This document shows, piece after piece, positions 18,787 to 30,100 of a stretch of 32,000 nt of DNA. Position numbers and translations under genes: made by a program. The notes beneath the pieces are model-generated. The model was not told where the DNA came from, did not search any database, and saw only the letters and a program-made list of their open reading frames with translations. The first letter of the stretch is position 1. Each line of letters starts with the position of its first letter. Source of the stretch: Telmatocola sphagniphila (GTDB taxonomy: Bacteria > Planctomycetota > Planctomycetia > Gemmatales > Gemmataceae); NCBI RefSeq assembly GCF_018398935.1, contig NZ_CP074694.1, forward strand, positions 660,001 to 692,000, read 5' to 3'.

Positions 18787-20300
<1,514 letters not shown>

Positions 20301-24911: not shown

Positions 24912-25661
24912 TTACAGGATATCCATGATAATGCAGGAGACGTTGTCTCGGGAGCCGCTATCCAAAGCGAGTTGACCCAGACCGTCCGCACAGGCTTGCG
25001 AATCGGTTTGCGTGCCGACAAAATTCAAAAGTTTGTCATCCGGGACTACGCCGTGCAGACCGTCGGAGCAGAGCAGGAAACGATCCCCCTGTTGCAGCGG
25101 AACTACCGTCACTTCCGGGCCATCTCCGACTTCTTTGCTGCCGAGGTATTTCCAAAGGACGTTGCGGAACTTATGCTCTCGGGCCTCGGCGGCTGAAATC
25201 GTTTTCGCTTCCACCAGAGCTTGAGCTAAAGAGTGATCGACGGTCAACTGGGAAATCTTGCGATTGCGAATCAGGTAGGTTCGGCTGTCGCCAACGCCGG
25301 TGACGAAGAGTTCCTGACCTTTACGCCAGACGGCCACGACCACGGTCGTGCCCATGTTCTTCATTTCCTTATCCAGCGAACCCATCGCCATGATTTCTTC
25401 ATTGGCGGTGACAATCGCTTTGCGGATAATGGTTTTCGTCTGCTCGATATTTACGGCCGGCGAGAGATGTTTCCGCAATTCGCGGGGTATGATGTCGATG
25501 GCTTTTTTACTGGCGACTTCGCCAGCGTTCTGGCCGCCCATACCGTCCGCAACAATACACACAATCAAATCGGGGAACAGTTTGACTTCGATAGAATCTT
25601 CGTTGTTTTCACGGTAATTCCCGAGAAGTGTGCATTTACCGATGTTCAGCGACAATGCCAT
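24912..25661 (-). CDS. PP2C-family Ser/Thr protein phosphatase
   Basis: RENNEDS, ADGMGGQNAGEVAS, CSDGL and GSRDNVSCI are PP2C metal-binding motifs. Confidence 0.85.
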   Translation of the reverse strand: MALSLNIGKCTLLGNYRENNEDSIEVKLFPDLIVCIVADGMGGQNAGEVASKKAIDIIPRELRKHLSPAVNIEQTKTIIRKAIVTANEEIMAMGSLDKEMKNMGTTVVVAVWRKGQELFVTGVGDSRTYLIRNRKISQLTVDHSLAQALVEAKTISAAEAREHKFRNVLWKYLGSKEVGDGPEVTVVPLQQGDRFLLCSDGLHGVVPDDKLLNFVGTQTDSQACADGLGQLALDSGSRDNVSCIIMDIL

Positions 25662-25915
25662 GCGAACAACTCCTCGCCTGTCAACGCTATCAACTGTGCC
25701 AGGCGAAAGTTATGAAATTAAAATGCTGCGCAAGCCAGCAACTACAGGGAACTTCCTTGCAACCTACTATCACGTTACCAAATATAGTATGTGTGACAAA
25801 GTGTAAATCCACAAGTCAGATAGGATGCTAGCTGAAAAACTCGCTTTCTCCTCTTGCGAATTCTGCCGATATATTCGATATTCTCGTCAGAGTCCAAGTG
25901 TGAACGGAGAATTGC

Positions 25916-27073
25916 ATGGATGCGATGCCCCGGCCCAGGCTGGCCCTGGTGCACGATTGGCTGACCGGAATGCGCGGCGGAGAGAAGTGTCTGGAGGTTC
26001 TCTGCCGGGAGTTTCCGGGTGCGCCGATTCATACCCTGATCCACCAAGTTGGCTCGACCTCACCTGAAATCGACTCGCATCCTGTCAAATCGAGTCGGCT
26101 CAATCATCTGCCGAAAATCGAGCGCTATTACCGATATCTTTTACCACTCATGCCCTGGGCCGCCCGCTGGAATGTCCGCGACTGCGATCTGGTTTTGAGT
26201 TTCAGCCACTGCGTGGCCAAGGCCGCCGTACCTCCTCCGGGAATCCCGCATGTCTGCTACTGCTTTACCCCGATGCGTTACGCGTGGCATATGAAGGAGC
26301 AGTATTTCGGTTCGGAACGGGTCTCCTTGAAGACTCGGGGAATCGACATAATTTTAAGCCGCATCCGGGAGTGGGATCGCAAAATCAGTACGCGGGTTAC
26401 CCATTTTATTGCTATTAGTCGAACGATCCGGGACCGGATCCGGGATTCCTACGATCGCGACAGCACGGTGATTTATCCTCCCGTGGATACCAAGTTCTAC
26501 ACTCCAACAAACATTCGTCGGGAGAACTTTTTTCTCGTGGTCTCGGCTTTCGCTCCTTACAAGCGATTGGATCTGGCACTGGAGGCCTGTCGACGGCTGG
26601 GACGAAAGTTAGTGCTCATCGGCAAAGGGCAGAACCTACAGAAGCTGAAAAATCAATACGCTGGCGATGATCGGATTCAATTTCTGGGCTGGCAATCAGA
26701 TCAGACGATCCGGGACTATCTGCGACGCTCCCAGGCACTACTGTTTCCCGGAGAGGAAGATTTCGGGATTGTTCCCCTGGAGGCGAACGCCTGCGGAACT
26801 CCCGTGATCGCTTACGCTCGGGGAGGGGCCACAGAGACGATCAAGCCTCTTGCGGGTTCGGCGGAGCCTACGGGAGTGTTCTTTGACGAACAGTCGGTGG
26901 ATAGTCTCGTCGCGGCCATCGAAACGTTCGAGAGGAGTCGCAGTGCGTTTTCTCCGTTAGCCGCTCGAGCGAATGCACAGAAGTTCAGTCAGGATCGCTT
27001 TCGGCGCGAAATGCTCGATTATATATCGAGTGTGCTGGCGGAAGATGGTCAGCGTCAGAGACGGGCGGCCTAA
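25916..27073 (+). CDS. GT-B fold glycosyltransferase (family 4-like)
   Basis: The N-terminus has LALVHDWL..MRGGEK. The C-terminal E-x7-E region is EEDFGIVPLEANACGTPVIAYARGGATET. An alternative ATG lies at 25925. Confidence 0.8.
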   Translation: MDAMPRPRLALVHDWLTGMRGGEKCLEVLCREFPGAPIHTLIHQVGSTSPEIDSHPVKSSRLNHLPKIERYYRYLLPLMPWAARWNVRDCDLVLSFSHCVAKAAVPPPGIPHVCYCFTPMRYAWHMKEQYFGSERVSLKTRGIDIILSRIREWDRKISTRVTHFIAISRTIRDRIRDSYDRDSTVIYPPVDTKFYTPTNIRRENFFLVVSAFAPYKRLDLALEACRRLGRKLVLIGKGQNLQKLKNQYAGDDRIQFLGWQSDQTIRDYLRRSQALLFPGEEDFGIVPLEANACGTPVIAYARGGATETIKPLAGSAEPTGVFFDEQSVDSLVAAIETFERSRSAFSPLAARANAQKFSQDRFRREMLDYISSVLAEDGQRQRRAA

Positions 27074-27075
27074 AC

Positions 27076-27103
27076 GAAAAAAGCTCTGGAGAATCTCCAG
27101 AGC
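27076..27103 (-). terminator. Terminator hairpin serving mainly the minus-strand repeat-protein gene
   Basis: GCTCTGGAG (27083-27091), loop AAT, CTCCAGAGC (27095-27103). The A7 run at 27076-27082 supplies the U tract on the minus strand, 30 nt after the TAA at 27134-27136. Confidence 0.6.
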
Positions 27104-27133
27104 CTTCGATGTTTCAGTCTAGGTCGGAATCAA

Positions 27134-29065
27134 TTACTTGCAGCCGCCGCAAGAAGAGCGACCGCCGAACAGCTTCATTCCGCCGAACAGGCTCTTGTGA
27201 CCACTGACAGGAGCAACAACTCCGCCGCAGCCCGAAACCGTAGCGCCACCGCAGCCGCTGTCGCAACCACTGCTGACCTGAACCTTGACGATTTCTTCGG
27301 TAGCAACCATTTCGGTGTAGGTTTCTTTCTTGCTCTTCTTAACGTCGCTCCAAGTGGTGACATCAACGTCGATGACCTTGTCCACTACCTTGGCAACGTT
27401 AACGGTGTGGGTAGCGGTCTTGGTGACCGGAACGCACTTCTTGGTAACAACTTCCACGTCCTTGGTAACCGGAATCATTTCGACTTCGGTGCGGGTAGCG
27501 GTCTTGGTAACAGGTACGCACTTGTTGACGGTAACATCAACGACCTTCGTCGAAGGAACGCTTTCGTAAACGGTGTTCACACCGGTCTTGGTGACTGCAA
27601 CGCACTTGTTAACGGTGACGTCAACGACTTTCGTCGAAGGAACGTTTTCGTAAACGGTGTTCACGCCGGTCTTGGTGACGGCAACGCACTTGTTAACGGT
27701 GACATCAACGACTTTCGTCGAAGGAACGTTTTCGTAAACGGTGTTCACGCCGGACTTGGTGACGGGAACGCACTTGTTAACGGTGACGTCGACGACCTTA
27801 GTGGAAGGAACGTTTTCGTAAACCGTCTTGGTAGCTGTCATGGTCTTGGCGACGCAATGAGTGACCGGAACCTGAATCGTTTCCGTCATTGCAACTCGTT
27901 CGTAAACGGTGCTGGTGACAGTTTGCGATTCGGTAACGGTTTCGTAGTGTCCGCAAGGAGCCGGGGTAGCACATGCACTGGTGGTAGCGCCGCCGAACAG
28001 TTTGCCACCGAAGAGGCTGTGACCATGGCCCACAGAAGTGGTACCACAGCCACCGCAACCGCCGGTGGTAACCGGGGTGCCGCAACCGGAAGCTGCAACT
28101 GCGGGAGTGCCGCAACCGCCGCAACCGCTCACCGTGGTTGCACAAGGATCAACGGCAACAACCGGAGCTGCCACCCAAACTTTGCGACAAACAGGAACTG
28201 TGTTCGTTACAGTCTTGGGAACGCAGGTGTACTTGGTGACGGTACGAGCTTCCATCGTCGTGACGGGTTCCATTACCGTGTAGGTGTAAGGAACTTGCTT
28301 CGAAACGGTGGTGTACTCGGTTACGGTTCGCTTTTCGACGGAGGGCTGCCATTCGTAAGCGGTGTAAGTGTAAGGAACTTGCTTGGCGACCCGGGTGTAC
28401 TCGGTCACTGTGCGTTTTTCAACGGTGGGCTGAATTTCGTTGACGGTGTAGGTGTAAGGAACTTGCTTGGCGACCCGGGTGTACTCGGTCACTGTGCGTT
28501 TTTCAACGGTCGGTTGAATTTCGTTGACGGTGTAGGTGTAAGGGACTTGCTTAGCGACCTGCGCGTATTCGGTAACCGTCTTCTTTTCGACAACGGCTTG
28601 CCATTCATTGACGGTGTAGGTGTAAGGAACCTGCTTTTCCTTGCGGTCGTAGCTCGTCTGCTTGACGACTTCCTTGACATCGGCCCACTCGTTAACAGTG
28701 TAGGTCGTCGTTTCGGTCTTCGGTTCCCAAACAGTTTCCTTGATGGTCTGCTTCTGCTTGGTCGTCACGGGAACCTTTTCGATATATTCGACGGTTCGTT
28801 CTTTGGTGACAGGCTTGTAGGTGATAACTTTCTGGTCAATCCAGGTTGGAGCAGGTGCTGCAACAGGACCGCAGGGAGCAGCGGCGCCGCAGGGCGATGC
28901 AACTGCGCCACCGCAACCGCTAGCAGCTACCTGACCGCAGGGGTCAGCAGCAACACCGCAACCCGAGGCAACGGCGCCACAAGATTTCTTGTGGGTAGCC
29001 ATTACGGGAGCCGTCAACAGCATGGCAGCAGTGAAGGCAGCGGCCGAACGAAAACCTTTCAACAT
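27134..29065 (-). CDS. Secreted Cys/Gly-rich repeat protein with YTV-type repeats (643 aa), a candidate planctomycete envelope protein
   Basis: AGGGAGA lies 6 nt upstream of the ATG at 29065. The signal peptide is MLKGFRSAAAFTAAMLLTAPVMA. There are two blocks of 28-aa repeats and three CG-rich linkers. All six differences between near-identical repeat copies are synonymous in this frame but non-synonymous in the antisense ORF. A terminator follows on this strand. Confidence 0.75.
   Translation of the reverse strand: MLKGFRSAAAFTAAMLLTAPVMATHKKSCGAVASGCGVAADPCGQVAASGCGGAVASPCGAAAPCGPVAAPAPTWIDQKVITYKPVTKERTVEYIEKVPVTTKQKQTIKETVWEPKTETTTYTVNEWADVKEVVKQTSYDRKEKQVPYTYTVNEWQAVVEKKTVTEYAQVAKQVPYTYTVNEIQPTVEKRTVTEYTRVAKQVPYTYTVNEIQPTVEKRTVTEYTRVAKQVPYTYTAYEWQPSVEKRTVTEYTTVSKQVPYTYTVMEPVTTMEARTVTKYTCVPKTVTNTVPVCRKVWVAAPVVAVDPCATTVSGCGGCGTPAVAASGCGTPVTTGGCGGCGTTSVGHGHSLFGGKLFGGATTSACATPAPCGHYETVTESQTVTSTVYERVAMTETIQVPVTHCVAKTMTATKTVYENVPSTKVVDVTVNKCVPVTKSGVNTVYENVPSTKVVDVTVNKCVAVTKTGVNTVYENVPSTKVVDVTVNKCVAVTKTGVNTVYESVPSTKVVDVTVNKCVPVTKTATRTEVEMIPVTKDVEVVTKKCVPVTKTATHTVNVAKVVDKVIDVDVTTWSDVKKSKKETYTEMVATEEIVKVQVSSGCDSGCGGATVSGCGGVVAPVSGHKSLFGGMKLFGGRSSCGGCK
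27410..27913 (-). repeat. Intragenic 84-bp (28-aa) tandem repeats, block B, six copies
   Basis: The consensus is NTVYENVPSTKVVDVTVNKCVAVTKTGV. The four central copies (27494-27829) are near-identical, and two adjacent copies differ at 3 of 84 nt. Confidence 0.9.
28214..28717 (-). repeat. Intragenic 84-bp (28-aa) tandem repeats, block A (YTYTV type), six copies
   Basis: The consensus is QVPYTYTVNEIQPTVEKRTVTEYTRVAK. The copies at 28382-28465 and 28466-28549 encode identical peptides and differ at 3 of 84 nt. Confidence 0.9.
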
Positions 29066-29395
29066 ACGTCGTCTCCCTCTTTCCGCCGAAAATAAATGAT
29101 GTGAAATGTAAGGTTTATTCATGGCGGAGCCTTACAAATCATGTCCTATCTTATTGCGGCTAAATGTTGACCGCTGAAGCATCATGCTAAACATGACCTT
29201 TTGGGAAGGCCACGCGTAATAAGAAGAATACACAATCCTGGTAAAATGGAAAGAGAAAATCGTCTTTATCGGGGCTTTCACTCTAACGAGTAGGAGTTAG
29301 GTAAAATCAACTTAGGAATCTTTGCCATTCTCAATAGAATCGCTTAAGTCAACATATTCCCACCAATCAGTCCCTTTTTGGAAAGGCAGGCTCTC

Positions 29396-30100
29396 ATGCG
29401 GAAGTGGTTTTGTGCATTGGCTCTAGTTTTTGGGCTTTCGGTTGCTGTCAAAGCGGATGACGACTTCGTGCCCCTGTTCAACGGGAAGGATCTCACCAGC
29501 TGGAAATTGCATCCCGAAACGAACACGGGAGCTTTTAAGGAAGTCAAGGCTGTGATGGCCGATGGCAAAAAGGTCGCCTGGGAAGGCATCACCAAAGACG
29601 GCAAAACGATTACTCTGTGGAAGGTTGTCGACGGTGCGATCGTCGGCGGCGGCCCGATGAGCCACCTCTACCACGACGCGGCCAAGTGGGAAAACTTCCA
29701 CTTCCGGGCTGAAGTTAAAATTAACGATAAGGGCAACAGTGGCATTTTCTTCCGAGCCGGTTACCGCGGCGGAATTCCAGAAGGTTACGAAGCCCAGATC
29801 GATGCGACCCACAGCGACCCGATTCGAACGGGAAGCATTTACCCCAACGGTGAATTCGGTCTGAACAAATTCCGCAAGGATATCGTGGTCATGAACACCG
29901 CGCCTCACAAGCCGGACGAATTCTTTACCTACGAAATTATCGCCAAGGGCGCTACCCTGACGACGATCGTGAACGGCAAGAAAATCAAGGAATGGACCGA
30001 TCCGGCCAAGACCTTCACCAAGGGGCACTTCGCTCTGCAAGGCCACGACCCAGGCTCGGTGATGACTTTCAAGAAAATTGAAGTCAAGGAATTGAAATAA
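29396..30100 (+). CDS. Secreted DUF1080-family protein (3-keto-disaccharide hydrolase-like, concanavalin-type fold)
   Basis: ATG at 29396 gives the signal peptide MRKWFCALALVFGLSVAVKA. FVPLFNGKDLTSWK, GNSGIFFRA, YEAQIDATH, GSIYP and HFALQGHDPGSVMTFKKIEVKEL follow the DUF1080 pattern, recognised from memory. Confidence 0.75.
   Translation: MRKWFCALALVFGLSVAVKADDDFVPLFNGKDLTSWKLHPETNTGAFKEVKAVMADGKKVAWEGITKDGKTITLWKVVDGAIVGGGPMSHLYHDAAKWENFHFRAEVKINDKGNSGIFFRAGYRGGIPEGYEAQIDATHSDPIRTGSIYPNGEFGLNKFRKDIVVMNTAPHKPDEFFTYEIIAKGATLTTIVNGKKIKEWTDPAKTFTKGHFALQGHDPGSVMTFKKIEVKELK

Follow-up and report, generated by a model that had tools for sequence, protein, structure and literature searches.

The window, a stretch of 32,000 nt of planctomycete DNA, encodes on its minus strand a Cys-rich protein with a predicted signal peptide, in which two blocks of different 28-aa repeats (A and B) appear to be the partner strands of a single structure rather than independent modules. 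Such pairing would explain why the period and the copy number are the same in both blocks. We consider it likely that the protein is secreted and forms a giant beta-hairpin rod of about 75 nm whose ends are Cys-rich and which is cross-linked into the protein wall of planctomycetes; here we infer both the location and the cross-linking through disulfides. Judged by homology, the protein is a divergent, expanded member of the Planctomycetia-specific YTV cell-wall family that the Pfam model misses.

The gene and the layout of its product

The longest minus-strand ORF in the ORF listing spans 27134..29122 and encodes 662 aa. Its second ATG, at 29065, is the likely true start, giving a product of 643 aa, because a Shine-Dalgarno-like AAGAGGGAG lies upstream and the N-termini of homologs begin at this position; the original prediction had the same end coordinate. 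An exact look-up found no record identical in sequence to the 643-aa or 662-aa product. The features are given below, with amino acid positions here and throughout in the 662-aa numbering.

29378..30100, plus strand: divergently transcribed PF06439 (DUF1080 / 3-keto-disaccharide-hydrolase-like) gene, a conserved neighbour of the wall-protein family
29073..29081, minus strand: Shine-Dalgarno-like AAGAGGGAG, upstream of the second ATG
27134..29065, minus strand: putative wall-protein CDS, 643 aa from the likely start ATG (29065..29063) to the stop TAA (27134..27136)
28997..29065, minus strand: predicted Sec signal peptide MLKGFRSAAAFTAAMLLTAPVMA, aa 20-42
28847..28996, minus strand: Cys/Gly/Ala-rich N-terminal cluster with 6 Cys, aa 43-92, proposed open end of the hairpin
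28172..28846, minus strand: arm A, aa 93-317 (225 aa), YTV-type 28-aa units, proposed N-terminal hairpin strand
28382..28549, minus strand: youngest duplicate pair of arm A, units aa 192-219 and 220-247, differing at 3/84 nt, all third codon positions
27947..28171, minus strand: middle Cys/Gly linker, aa 318-392 (75 aa), 8 Cys, proposed hairpin tip
27989..28030, minus strand: GHGHSLFGGKLFGG in the middle linker, aa 365-378
27275..27946, minus strand: arm B, aa 393-616 (224 aa), VYENVPSTKVVDVTVNKC-type 28-aa units, proposed C-terminal strand antiparallel to arm A
27575..27742, minus strand: youngest duplicate pair of arm B, units aa 461-488 and 489-516, differing at 3/84 nt, all third codon positions
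27137..27274, minus strand: C-terminal Cys/Gly tail, aa 617-662, 5 Cys, ending GCK
27161..27205, minus strand: SGHKSLFGGMKLFGG in the C-terminal tail, aa 640-654
27079..27107, minus strand: intrinsic-terminator-like hairpin (13-bp stem, then a T run) shortly past the stop codon

The plus strand also carries a long open ORF (27197..29095, 632 aa), which could be the real product, or the region could be non-coding repeat DNA. Against both readings, the minus-strand product has hundreds of homologs and its gene is flanked by the Shine-Dalgarno-like site and the terminator. In addition, all six nucleotide differences within the two youngest repeat pairs (6/6) fall at third codon positions of the minus-strand frame and are synonymous; by coordinate arithmetic the plus-strand ORF is in codon register with that frame, so that the same sites are first codon positions on the plus strand. 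The minus-strand coding call of the original prediction is thereby upheld, and we give these alternatives practically no credence.

The architecture read earlier from the translation was found in full, comprising the signal peptide form, the Cys/Gly clusters, the two 28-aa repeat blocks, the motifs of the SLFGG/KLFGG region and the terminal SSCGGCK. The predicted signal peptide is Sec-like in form, conserved in homologs and helical in the structure model. Valine and threonine together make up 35% of the mature protein, and its 27 Cys make up 4.4%. GHGH and SGHK motifs adjoin the Cys clusters.

Block A consists of five clear 28-aa units of the form QVPYTYTVNE..VEKRTVTEYT.VAK (aa 164-303; 16-28/28 identities) and an additional degenerate unit (aa 136-163), with YTYT recurring at aa 167, 195, 223, 251 and 279 and TTYT at aa 139, a period of 28 aa. 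Block B, whose units are of the VYENVPSTK type, consists of four near-identical units, TVYENVPSTKVVDVTVNKCV.VTKTGVN (aa 433-544; 23-28/28 identities), and degenerate units at aa 405-432, 545-572 and 573-600. The counts first proposed, six units in A and six to seven in B, are thus reached when degenerate units are included (five clear plus one; four near-identical plus three). At the DNA level, Tandem Repeats Finder detected repeats at 27499-27823 (period 84, 3.9 copies, 92% matches, score 517) and 28278-28636 (period 84, 4.3 copies, 83% matches, score 408), far beyond chance.

Proposed pairing and joint expansion of the two arms

Length is coupled between the arms. Among 88 family members, with arms delimited by profile landmarks, the lengths of the two arms were correlated (r = 0.77, p = 3e-18) with a median difference of 2 aa. 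Matched classes include 101/100, 127/126 (the modal class), 129/128, 141/140, 147/148, 151/150, 155/154, 157/156 and, for the protein described here (the query), 225/224. The closest homolog of the query is a 141/140 protein, so the query is three units longer than it in both arms. The arms truly differ by one unit in about 10% of members, and therefore the length lock is not absolute. A segmentation of the arms by composition merged them at short linkers and gave a spurious negative correlation; it was replaced by the profile landmarks.

Positions in the two arms also covary in an antiparallel register. APC-corrected mutual information between the arms peaked on the anti-diagonals i+j = 393, 395, 391 and 397 (z = 8.1, 6.9, 5.8 and 3.3), against z = 1.4 for the best parallel diagonal. 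Of the top inter-arm pairs, 24/25 lay on anti-diagonals 391-397, spread along the whole arm. The signal persisted in 43 gap-free sequences with the query excluded, and was lost when the C arms were shuffled among sequences. Opposite-charge pairs were doubled on these anti-diagonals (0.069 vs ~0.03), same-charge pairs were threefold lower, and K-E/E-K swaps were present. Covariation of Cys alone between the arms was weak, its best anti-diagonal (389) not standing out; disulfides within the hairpin are therefore unsupported and we claim no specific disulfide pairs.

The duplication histories of arms A and B mirror each other in the query gene. The units of arm A face those of arm B one-for-one, and the youngest A and B pairs, equal in divergence, face each other in hairpin register. 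When the B-B identity matrix was mirrored, its correlation with the A-A matrix was r = 0.81 (exact Mantel p = 0.015), compared with r = 0.24 unmirrored. We propose that rod length evolves in quanta of 28 aa (~9 nm), a tandem duplication in one arm being later offset by a duplication at the mirrored site of the other. This would be an unusual evolutionary mode, as two different repeat arrays in one gene would have to expand jointly at mirror positions while keeping register; apparent intermediates of such mirrored expansion are found in nature.

These observations bear on the original prediction of two unrelated repeat families, when it is read as two independent modules, each with its own beta-solenoid or fibre domain and sharing the 28-aa period by coincidence. 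The distinctness of the families held up: the A and B repeat profiles overlapped twice among 300 x 332 repeat hits and occupied separate halves of every member. Similarity between the blocks was marginal, with p = 0.09 by consensus comparison and, by profile comparison, z = 4.2 under an overly permissive null and z = 2.2 (p = 0.03) under one that preserves parity; by these comparisons, support for a common origin of the A and B repeats is marginal. Independence of the modules did not hold up, in that locked arm lengths, anti-diagonal covariation, charge complementarity and mirrored duplications are all unexpected of it, and both structure models contain strands of 38-130 residues without turns, unlike the coils of a solenoid. 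We therefore regard two independent modules as very improbable.

Structure models and the proposed rod

The AlphaFold2 model of one relative, the canonical member P0054, contains only two strands (E58-187 and E193-322; pLDDT 85-94), each of 130 residues and linked by a 5-residue turn. In the model of the query, nested strands of equal length (51, 38 and 74 residues) surround the linker, although the quality of this model is low across the expanded repeats (mean pLDDT 57). The extended beta structure suggested earlier thus agrees with the long uninterrupted strands predicted in both proteins (38-74 residues in the query, 130 in P0054). The accompanying guess of a beta-solenoid does not, since the strands in both models run without turns and the covariation falls between the arms, not between successive coils.

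The inter-arm covariation by itself fits two arrangements alike, a hairpin within one chain and A-B pairing of the same register between chains. The pairing could accordingly be antiparallel but intermolecular, in domain-swapped dimers or head-to-tail polymers, which would account equally well for the arm-length lock. The 75-aa linker of the query is long enough for swapping, and since a two-stranded ribbon on its own is physically implausible, some intermolecular beta contacts are to be expected. The linker is just 8-17 aa in most family members, however, and AlphaFold2 closes that of P0054 to its 5-residue turn with high confidence. An intramolecular hairpin is therefore the simplest topology, and we judge pairing between chains unlikely, if well worth keeping in view. 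A single ribbon is unlikely to be stable by itself, which makes an oligomer the probable biological unit.

In the intramolecular hairpin that we favor, arm A would pair unit-for-unit and antiparallel with arm B, placing the 75-aa linker at the tip and bringing the N- and C-terminal Cys/Gly clusters together at the opposite end. Fully extended, the rod would measure ~75 nm in the query vs ~43 nm in canonical 127/126-aa members. One face of the rod would be rich in Val, Lys and Glu and the other in Thr, Pro, Trp and Cys.

Known structures offer geometric analogs. A sequence-profile search of the PDB with the query returned nothing at E<=1. The only entries that Foldseek retrieved from the PDB were long-hairpin pore stems and phage tail knobs (phi29 tail complex 6qz9, phage Andhra tail 8egr, lysenin 5ec5, epsilon-toxin 6rb9, aerolysin and anthrax PA 3j9c), with TM-scores <=0.11 and probabilities <=0.30, too low to indicate a shared fold. 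Like the query family, the stems of beta-pore-forming toxins and the phage tail knobs have very long two-stranded antiparallel hairpins with an alternating residue pattern, but they have no sequence relation to it and are analogs in geometry only. Their hairpins have roughly 30-40 residues per strand, several-fold shorter than those proposed here, and occur only in oligomeric barrels on globular domains. To our knowledge, strands of 127-225 residues would exceed several-fold those of any hairpin solved to date, and we know of no solved precedent for an isolated two-stranded ribbon of such length. Elongated beta rods that lack a conventional core are nonetheless familiar from the G5-E repeats of staphylococcal SasG/Aap and the single-layer sheet of OspA. 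These resemble the proposed rod as thin, repeat-built beta structures of the cell surface, but they are made of many short strands across the rod, whereas ours would have two strands along its entire length.

Membership in the YTV family and a possible wall role

The original prediction had linked block A to the YTV envelope proteins of planctomycetes and had taken a Pfam hit as the measure of that link. By this measure the link fails, because Pfam YTV (PF07639) gave no match to the 662-aa or 643-aa product even at E<=10; the measure is, however, too strict. Pfam and NCBIfam scans of the query returned nothing informative, and scans of the genome collection with the single protein or with an alignment of the query and P0001 yielded no confirmed relative. 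A family profile search identified 827 representative clusters at E<=1e-3, 122 of them at E<=1e-30. These relatives are mostly 315-470 aa long and match the whole two-module profile in one stretch; the two-module plan is the norm in this family.

Pfam YTV recognises 14/86 family members, leaving an annotation gap in which the model reaches only about one sixth of the sampled family. Two members, P0054 (24.4 bits) and P0158 (32.2 bits), exceed its curated gathering cut-off of 21 bits. Both matched the profile containing the query over their full length in a single stretch (E = 5.7e-63, positions 1-375, and E = 8.2e-27, positions 1-378, respectively), and direct BLASTP of the query against P0054 gave E = 4e-9. 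The Pfam YTV stretches of ten proteins (six above cut-off) align onto block A units, and those of P0054 have the same 28-aa spacing as block A. The link to YTV envelope proteins is thus supported through full-length homology to relatives that pass the Pfam model. Consistent with membership in the wider family of YTV-type wall proteins, the query combines this homology with tandem Y-T-V repeats, a secreted-type N-terminus and Cys-rich composition. Family members with names belong to Gemmata and Gemmataceae, and named relatives of the ArgRS encoded in the window to Gemmataceae and Fimbriiglobus, all in Planctomycetia, the class to which the YTV family is confined (PMC8567305, PMC12673574).

The query shares with YTV wall proteins a signal peptide, Cys-rich regions, the 28-aa Y-T-V repeat, the two-arm plan, a C-terminal Cys-x ending and a Planctomycetia host. 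It differs in its block A pattern (YTV-NE-xQP vs YTV-x-VP in the Pfam model), in its arm lengths (225/224 aa vs the modal 127/126) and in its 75-aa tip linker with an LFGG motif. YTV Cys-rich proteins are major proteins in SDS-boiled walls of Rhodopirellula baltica, Gemmata obscuriglobus (GobsU_38067, GobsU_28375, GobsU_21360) and Tuwongella immobilis (PMC8567305, PMC5287468, PMC12673574), and one YTV protein is essential in P. limnophila (PMC10632474). The proposed wall role of the query draws on its homology to such proteins, identified by proteomics in other species. We found no description of YTV hairpin architecture, structure or mechanism in the searchable literature, beyond whose reach lies Mahajan et al. 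2020 (GBE), and no 'YTV' entries in the supplements of PMC8567305.

We suggest that after Sec export the rods associate through their faces and are joined covalently through their Cys-rich ends and the one Cys per B unit (~every 9 nm), yielding an SDS-resistant proteinaceous wall layer; disulfide cross-linking through the block B Cys is plausible. The make-up of the planctomycete wall has been disputed for decades, and a concrete model of two-faced rods with Cys-rich ends makes this open question testable. In the chlamydiae, which belong to the same PVC superphylum, the disulfide cross-linked Cys-rich proteins OmcA, OmcB and MOMP give the envelope its rigidity; the likeness of this outer-membrane complex to the proposed wall role is a functional analogy only.

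The hairpin could also be correct and its role different, for example as a fibre or adhesin on the cell surface, as a spacer or ruler in the periplasm, or as a metal-binding protein whose Cys/Gly/His-rich ends hold the metal. The location of the query is assigned by homology, the His motifs beside the Cys clusters would suit metal binding, and the conserved, lectin-like DUF1080 neighbour could hint at a glycan-linked role. Weighed against the top-scoring position of Pfam-YTV relatives in SDS-resistant wall preparations from three species (PMC8567305, PMC5287468, PMC12673574), these roles seem to us decidedly unlikely.

YTV wall proteins in general could be rigid single-hairpin nanorods of 127-225 residues per strand, stitched by disulfides at their Cys-rich ends into the sacculus and varying in length by mirror-duplication steps of 28 residues (~9 nm), a generalization that we offer tentatively and as having slightly less than an even chance of being right. 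Rods that can be made longer or shorter by increments of 9 nm may represent a design principle of use for protein materials. The query, at a predicted ~75 nm, is the longest matched-arm example among the members examined.

Coding strand, start codon and repeat layout

The gene and its start were delimited by the following minus-strand features:

27134..29122, minus strand: long ORF of 662 aa, used here for residue numbering
29065, minus strand: second ATG, the likelier start, giving a 643-aa product
29073..29081, minus strand: AAGAGGGAG, preceding the second ATG

The ATG at 29065 is favored because AAGAGGGAG precedes it and homolog N-termini correspond to it, in agreement with the coordinates originally predicted. 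The coding frame of the region is the minus frame, since, read that way, every difference among the youngest repeat copies (6/6) is a synonymous change at a third codon position; a terminator with a 13-bp stem lies at the end of the gene. Antisense to the gene and in codon register with it, an ORF of 632 aa is open on the plus strand (27197..29095); rather than a gene of its own, it seems to be a shadow ORF of the repeat-rich coding strand.

Every predicted element of the architecture is present in the translation: a signal-peptide-like N-terminus followed by a Cys/Gly/Ala cluster; block A, with five clear 28-aa units (QVPYTYTVNE..VEKRTVTEYT.VAK, aa 164-303) and, at 136-163, a degenerate one; a Cys/Gly linker that carries GHGHSLFGGKLFGG; block B, with four near-identical TVYENVPSTKVVDVTVNKCV.VTKTGVN units (aa 433-544) and degenerate copies at 405, 545 and 573; and a tail with SGHKSLFGGMKLFGG and a terminal SSCGGCK. 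Tandem Repeats Finder placed both arrays at a period of 84 nt (scores 517 and 408). Cys clusters are confined to the two ends, the family medians being 4 Cys in the N-terminal region, 4 in the tip linker and 5 in the C-tail. About three quarters of full-length members terminate in [G/C]-Cys-x-COOH (x = N, H, K or R), with the penultimate Cys conserved; the query ends in GCK (aa 658-662, window 27137..27151). LFGG or FGG[KR]LF-type motifs occurred only in the Cys/Gly end regions of 88 members (after the signal peptide in 23/88, in the tip linker in 16/88 and in the C-tail in 30/88) and never in the arms; the query's sites are 27989..28030 and 27161..27205.

Membership in the wider YTV family

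The original prediction had likened block A to YTV proteins and pointed to Pfam as the check; the query matched nothing in Pfam or NCBIfam, and YTV (PF07639) gave no match even at E<=10. A search of 5.8 billion proteins returned only 21 relatives, most of them 370-430 aa long with the same two-module plan, the named ones from Gemmata or Gemmataceae; two weak matches in this search carried PF07639. An exhaustive search with a 379-position profile, built from a 15-sequence alignment, retrieved 827 representative clusters at a threshold of E<=1e-3, of which 122 reached E<=1e-30; most clusters matched the entire profile in a single stretch. The Pfam model recognizes 14 of 86 family members.

The YTV link itself was borne out through two homologs, P0054 and P0158. 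Both are full-length matches to the family profile (E = 5.7e-63 and 8.2e-27), exceed the 21-bit Pfam YTV cut-off (24.4 and 32.2 bits) and have YTV stretches that align onto block A; BLASTP also links the query directly with P0054 (E = 4e-9). These matches place the query in the wider YTV family, within the large share of it that lies beyond the reach of the Pfam model. YTV-to-YTV spacing in P0054 is 28 aa, as in block A; the canonical repeat reads YTV-x-VP, whereas the query has YTV-NE-xQP. Cys-rich YTV proteins are known from Planctomycetia only (PMC8567305, PMC5287468, PMC12673574, PMC3343278) and are major proteins of the SDS-resistant wall material prepared from R. baltica, G. obscuriglobus and T. 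immobilis (PMC8567305, PMC5287468, PMC12673574); in P. limnophila, one YTV protein is essential (PMC10632474). The ArgRS encoded in the window indicates a planctomycete of Gemmatales type, with a replicon of ~6.6 Mb. As the family is already known, the system is not of a novel type; the query is a divergent variant that escapes the standard model and whose arms are nearly double the normal length.

Antiparallel pairing and mirrored expansion of the two arms

Blocks A and B, taken in the original prediction for unrelated modules, are not independent but form the two arms of one structure, as locked arm lengths, anti-diagonal covariation, charge coupling and predicted strands all indicate. The repeats stay distinct in iterated repeat profiles (300 A matches at relative position 0.2-0.5, 332 B matches at 0.5-0.9, 2 overlaps only), and they resemble each other only marginally (consensus sequences, p = 0.09; profiles under a parity-preserving null, p = 0.03). 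Arm lengths, derived from profile landmarks in 88 full-length members, are correlated (r = 0.77, p = 3e-18, median difference 2 aa), with N-arm/C-arm classes of 101/100, 127/126 (the mode), 129/128, 141/140, 147/148, 151/150, 155/154 and 157/156. The query's arms measure 225/224 and those of its closest homolog, P0001, 141/140; the query has therefore gained exactly 3 x 28 aa per arm.

Antiparallel pairing of A with B runs the whole arm length. Line-averaged, APC-corrected mutual information between columns of the two arms peaked at i+j = 393, 395, 391 and 397 (z = 8.1, 6.9, 5.8 and 3.3), with no parallel diagonal above z = 1.4, and this K, K+/-2 pattern is a signature of antiparallel strand pairing. 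Nearly all top inter-arm pairs (24/25) fell on the peak anti-diagonals, spanning 60<->335 to 179<->216. The signal was kept with 43 gap-free sequences, query excluded, and was gone once C arms were reassigned among sequences. On the peak lines opposite-charge pairs were doubled, same-charge pairs were down threefold, and K-E/E-K swaps were present. The AlphaFold2 model of P0054 (pLDDT 85-94 over residues 58-322) comprises just two strands (E58-187 and E193-322) with a turn of 5 residues between them; the predicted beta structure is upheld, and the suggested solenoid gives way to two uninterrupted strands. Confidence is lower for the query's own model (mean pLDDT 57, with low values in the expanded units), in which strands of matching length (51, 38 and 74 residues) are nested around the linker on both sides. 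Foldseek returned no solved structural analog of the hairpin, its sole matches being long-hairpin pore stems and phage tail knobs (TM-score <= 0.11).

Arm lengths are locked and expansion is mirrored. With i+j ~709, each A unit from 108...276 has one B unit opposite it in 573...405, and the youngest A pair (192/220) lies opposite the youngest B pair (489/461), with 3/84 nt differences in each. Mirroring raises the correlation of the B-B with the A-A DNA identity matrix from r = 0.24 to r = 0.81 (exact Mantel p = 0.015). Some family members carry one additional unit in a single arm only. In P0027, P0023, P0046, P0024 and P0025, which may be intermediates before a compensating duplication, the two arms are genuinely unequal, by roughly one repeat unit or more. 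Because the excess unit is a near-identical recent copy in most inspected (P0027, P0023, P0024 and P0025; not evident in P0046), duplication in one arm, then compensation in the other, is the likely order of events. The arms of another homolog, P0002 (886 aa, L004 7501-10161), appear by eye to be expanded, at roughly 185 aa each; its C-terminal ~300 residues are Arg/Pro-rich, unlike the rest of the family, and look like a frameshift or read-through artefact of metagenome assembly.

Proposed assembly and genomic neighborhood

What emerges is one giant hairpin whose arms co-evolve, an architecture of which we found no description in the searchable literature, a body that excludes the key 2020 YTV paper. 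The ribbon is two-faced (Val/Lys/Glu versus Thr/Pro/Trp/Cys), with one Cys per B unit and no Cys opposite in arm A. We propose that the query would be exported via Sec and fold as an intramolecular, not swapped, hairpin, giving a rod ~75 nm long if each residue spans 0.33-0.34 nm. Rods might associate face-to-face or laterally and be stitched by disulfides through the end Cys clusters and the single Cys of each B unit, in a putative wall role. The result recasts an old problem of planctomycete wall biology as a set of specific experiments.

Neighboring features, including those in genomic contexts of homologs (L002, L003 and L004), were:

29378..30100, plus strand: secreted PF06439 (DUF1080 / 3-keto-disaccharide-hydrolase-like) gene, ~250 aa
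L002 1919-2674, L003 8916-9674, L004 6408-7160: counterparts of the PF06439 gene
18787..20300, plus strand: complete bacterial 16S rRNA gene, 1426 bits

The rRNA genes are unlinked, since no 23S, 5S or tRNA gene accompanies the 16S gene in the 32-kb window. In 4/5 contexts examined, Gemmata sp. G18 among them, the PF06439 gene is the direct upstream neighbor of the wall-protein gene, in divergent orientation; these neighbors, mutually 46-59% identical and more conserved than the wall proteins, may be functional partners. Glycosyltransferase genes neighbor the wall-protein gene in the window and on L002. A GT4 gene (25916..27073) is convergent with it, and PP2C phosphatase genes occur nearby both in the window (24912..27073 region) and on L002, where a GT2 gene, a sugar transferase gene and, additionally, an exosortase EpsH gene are found.
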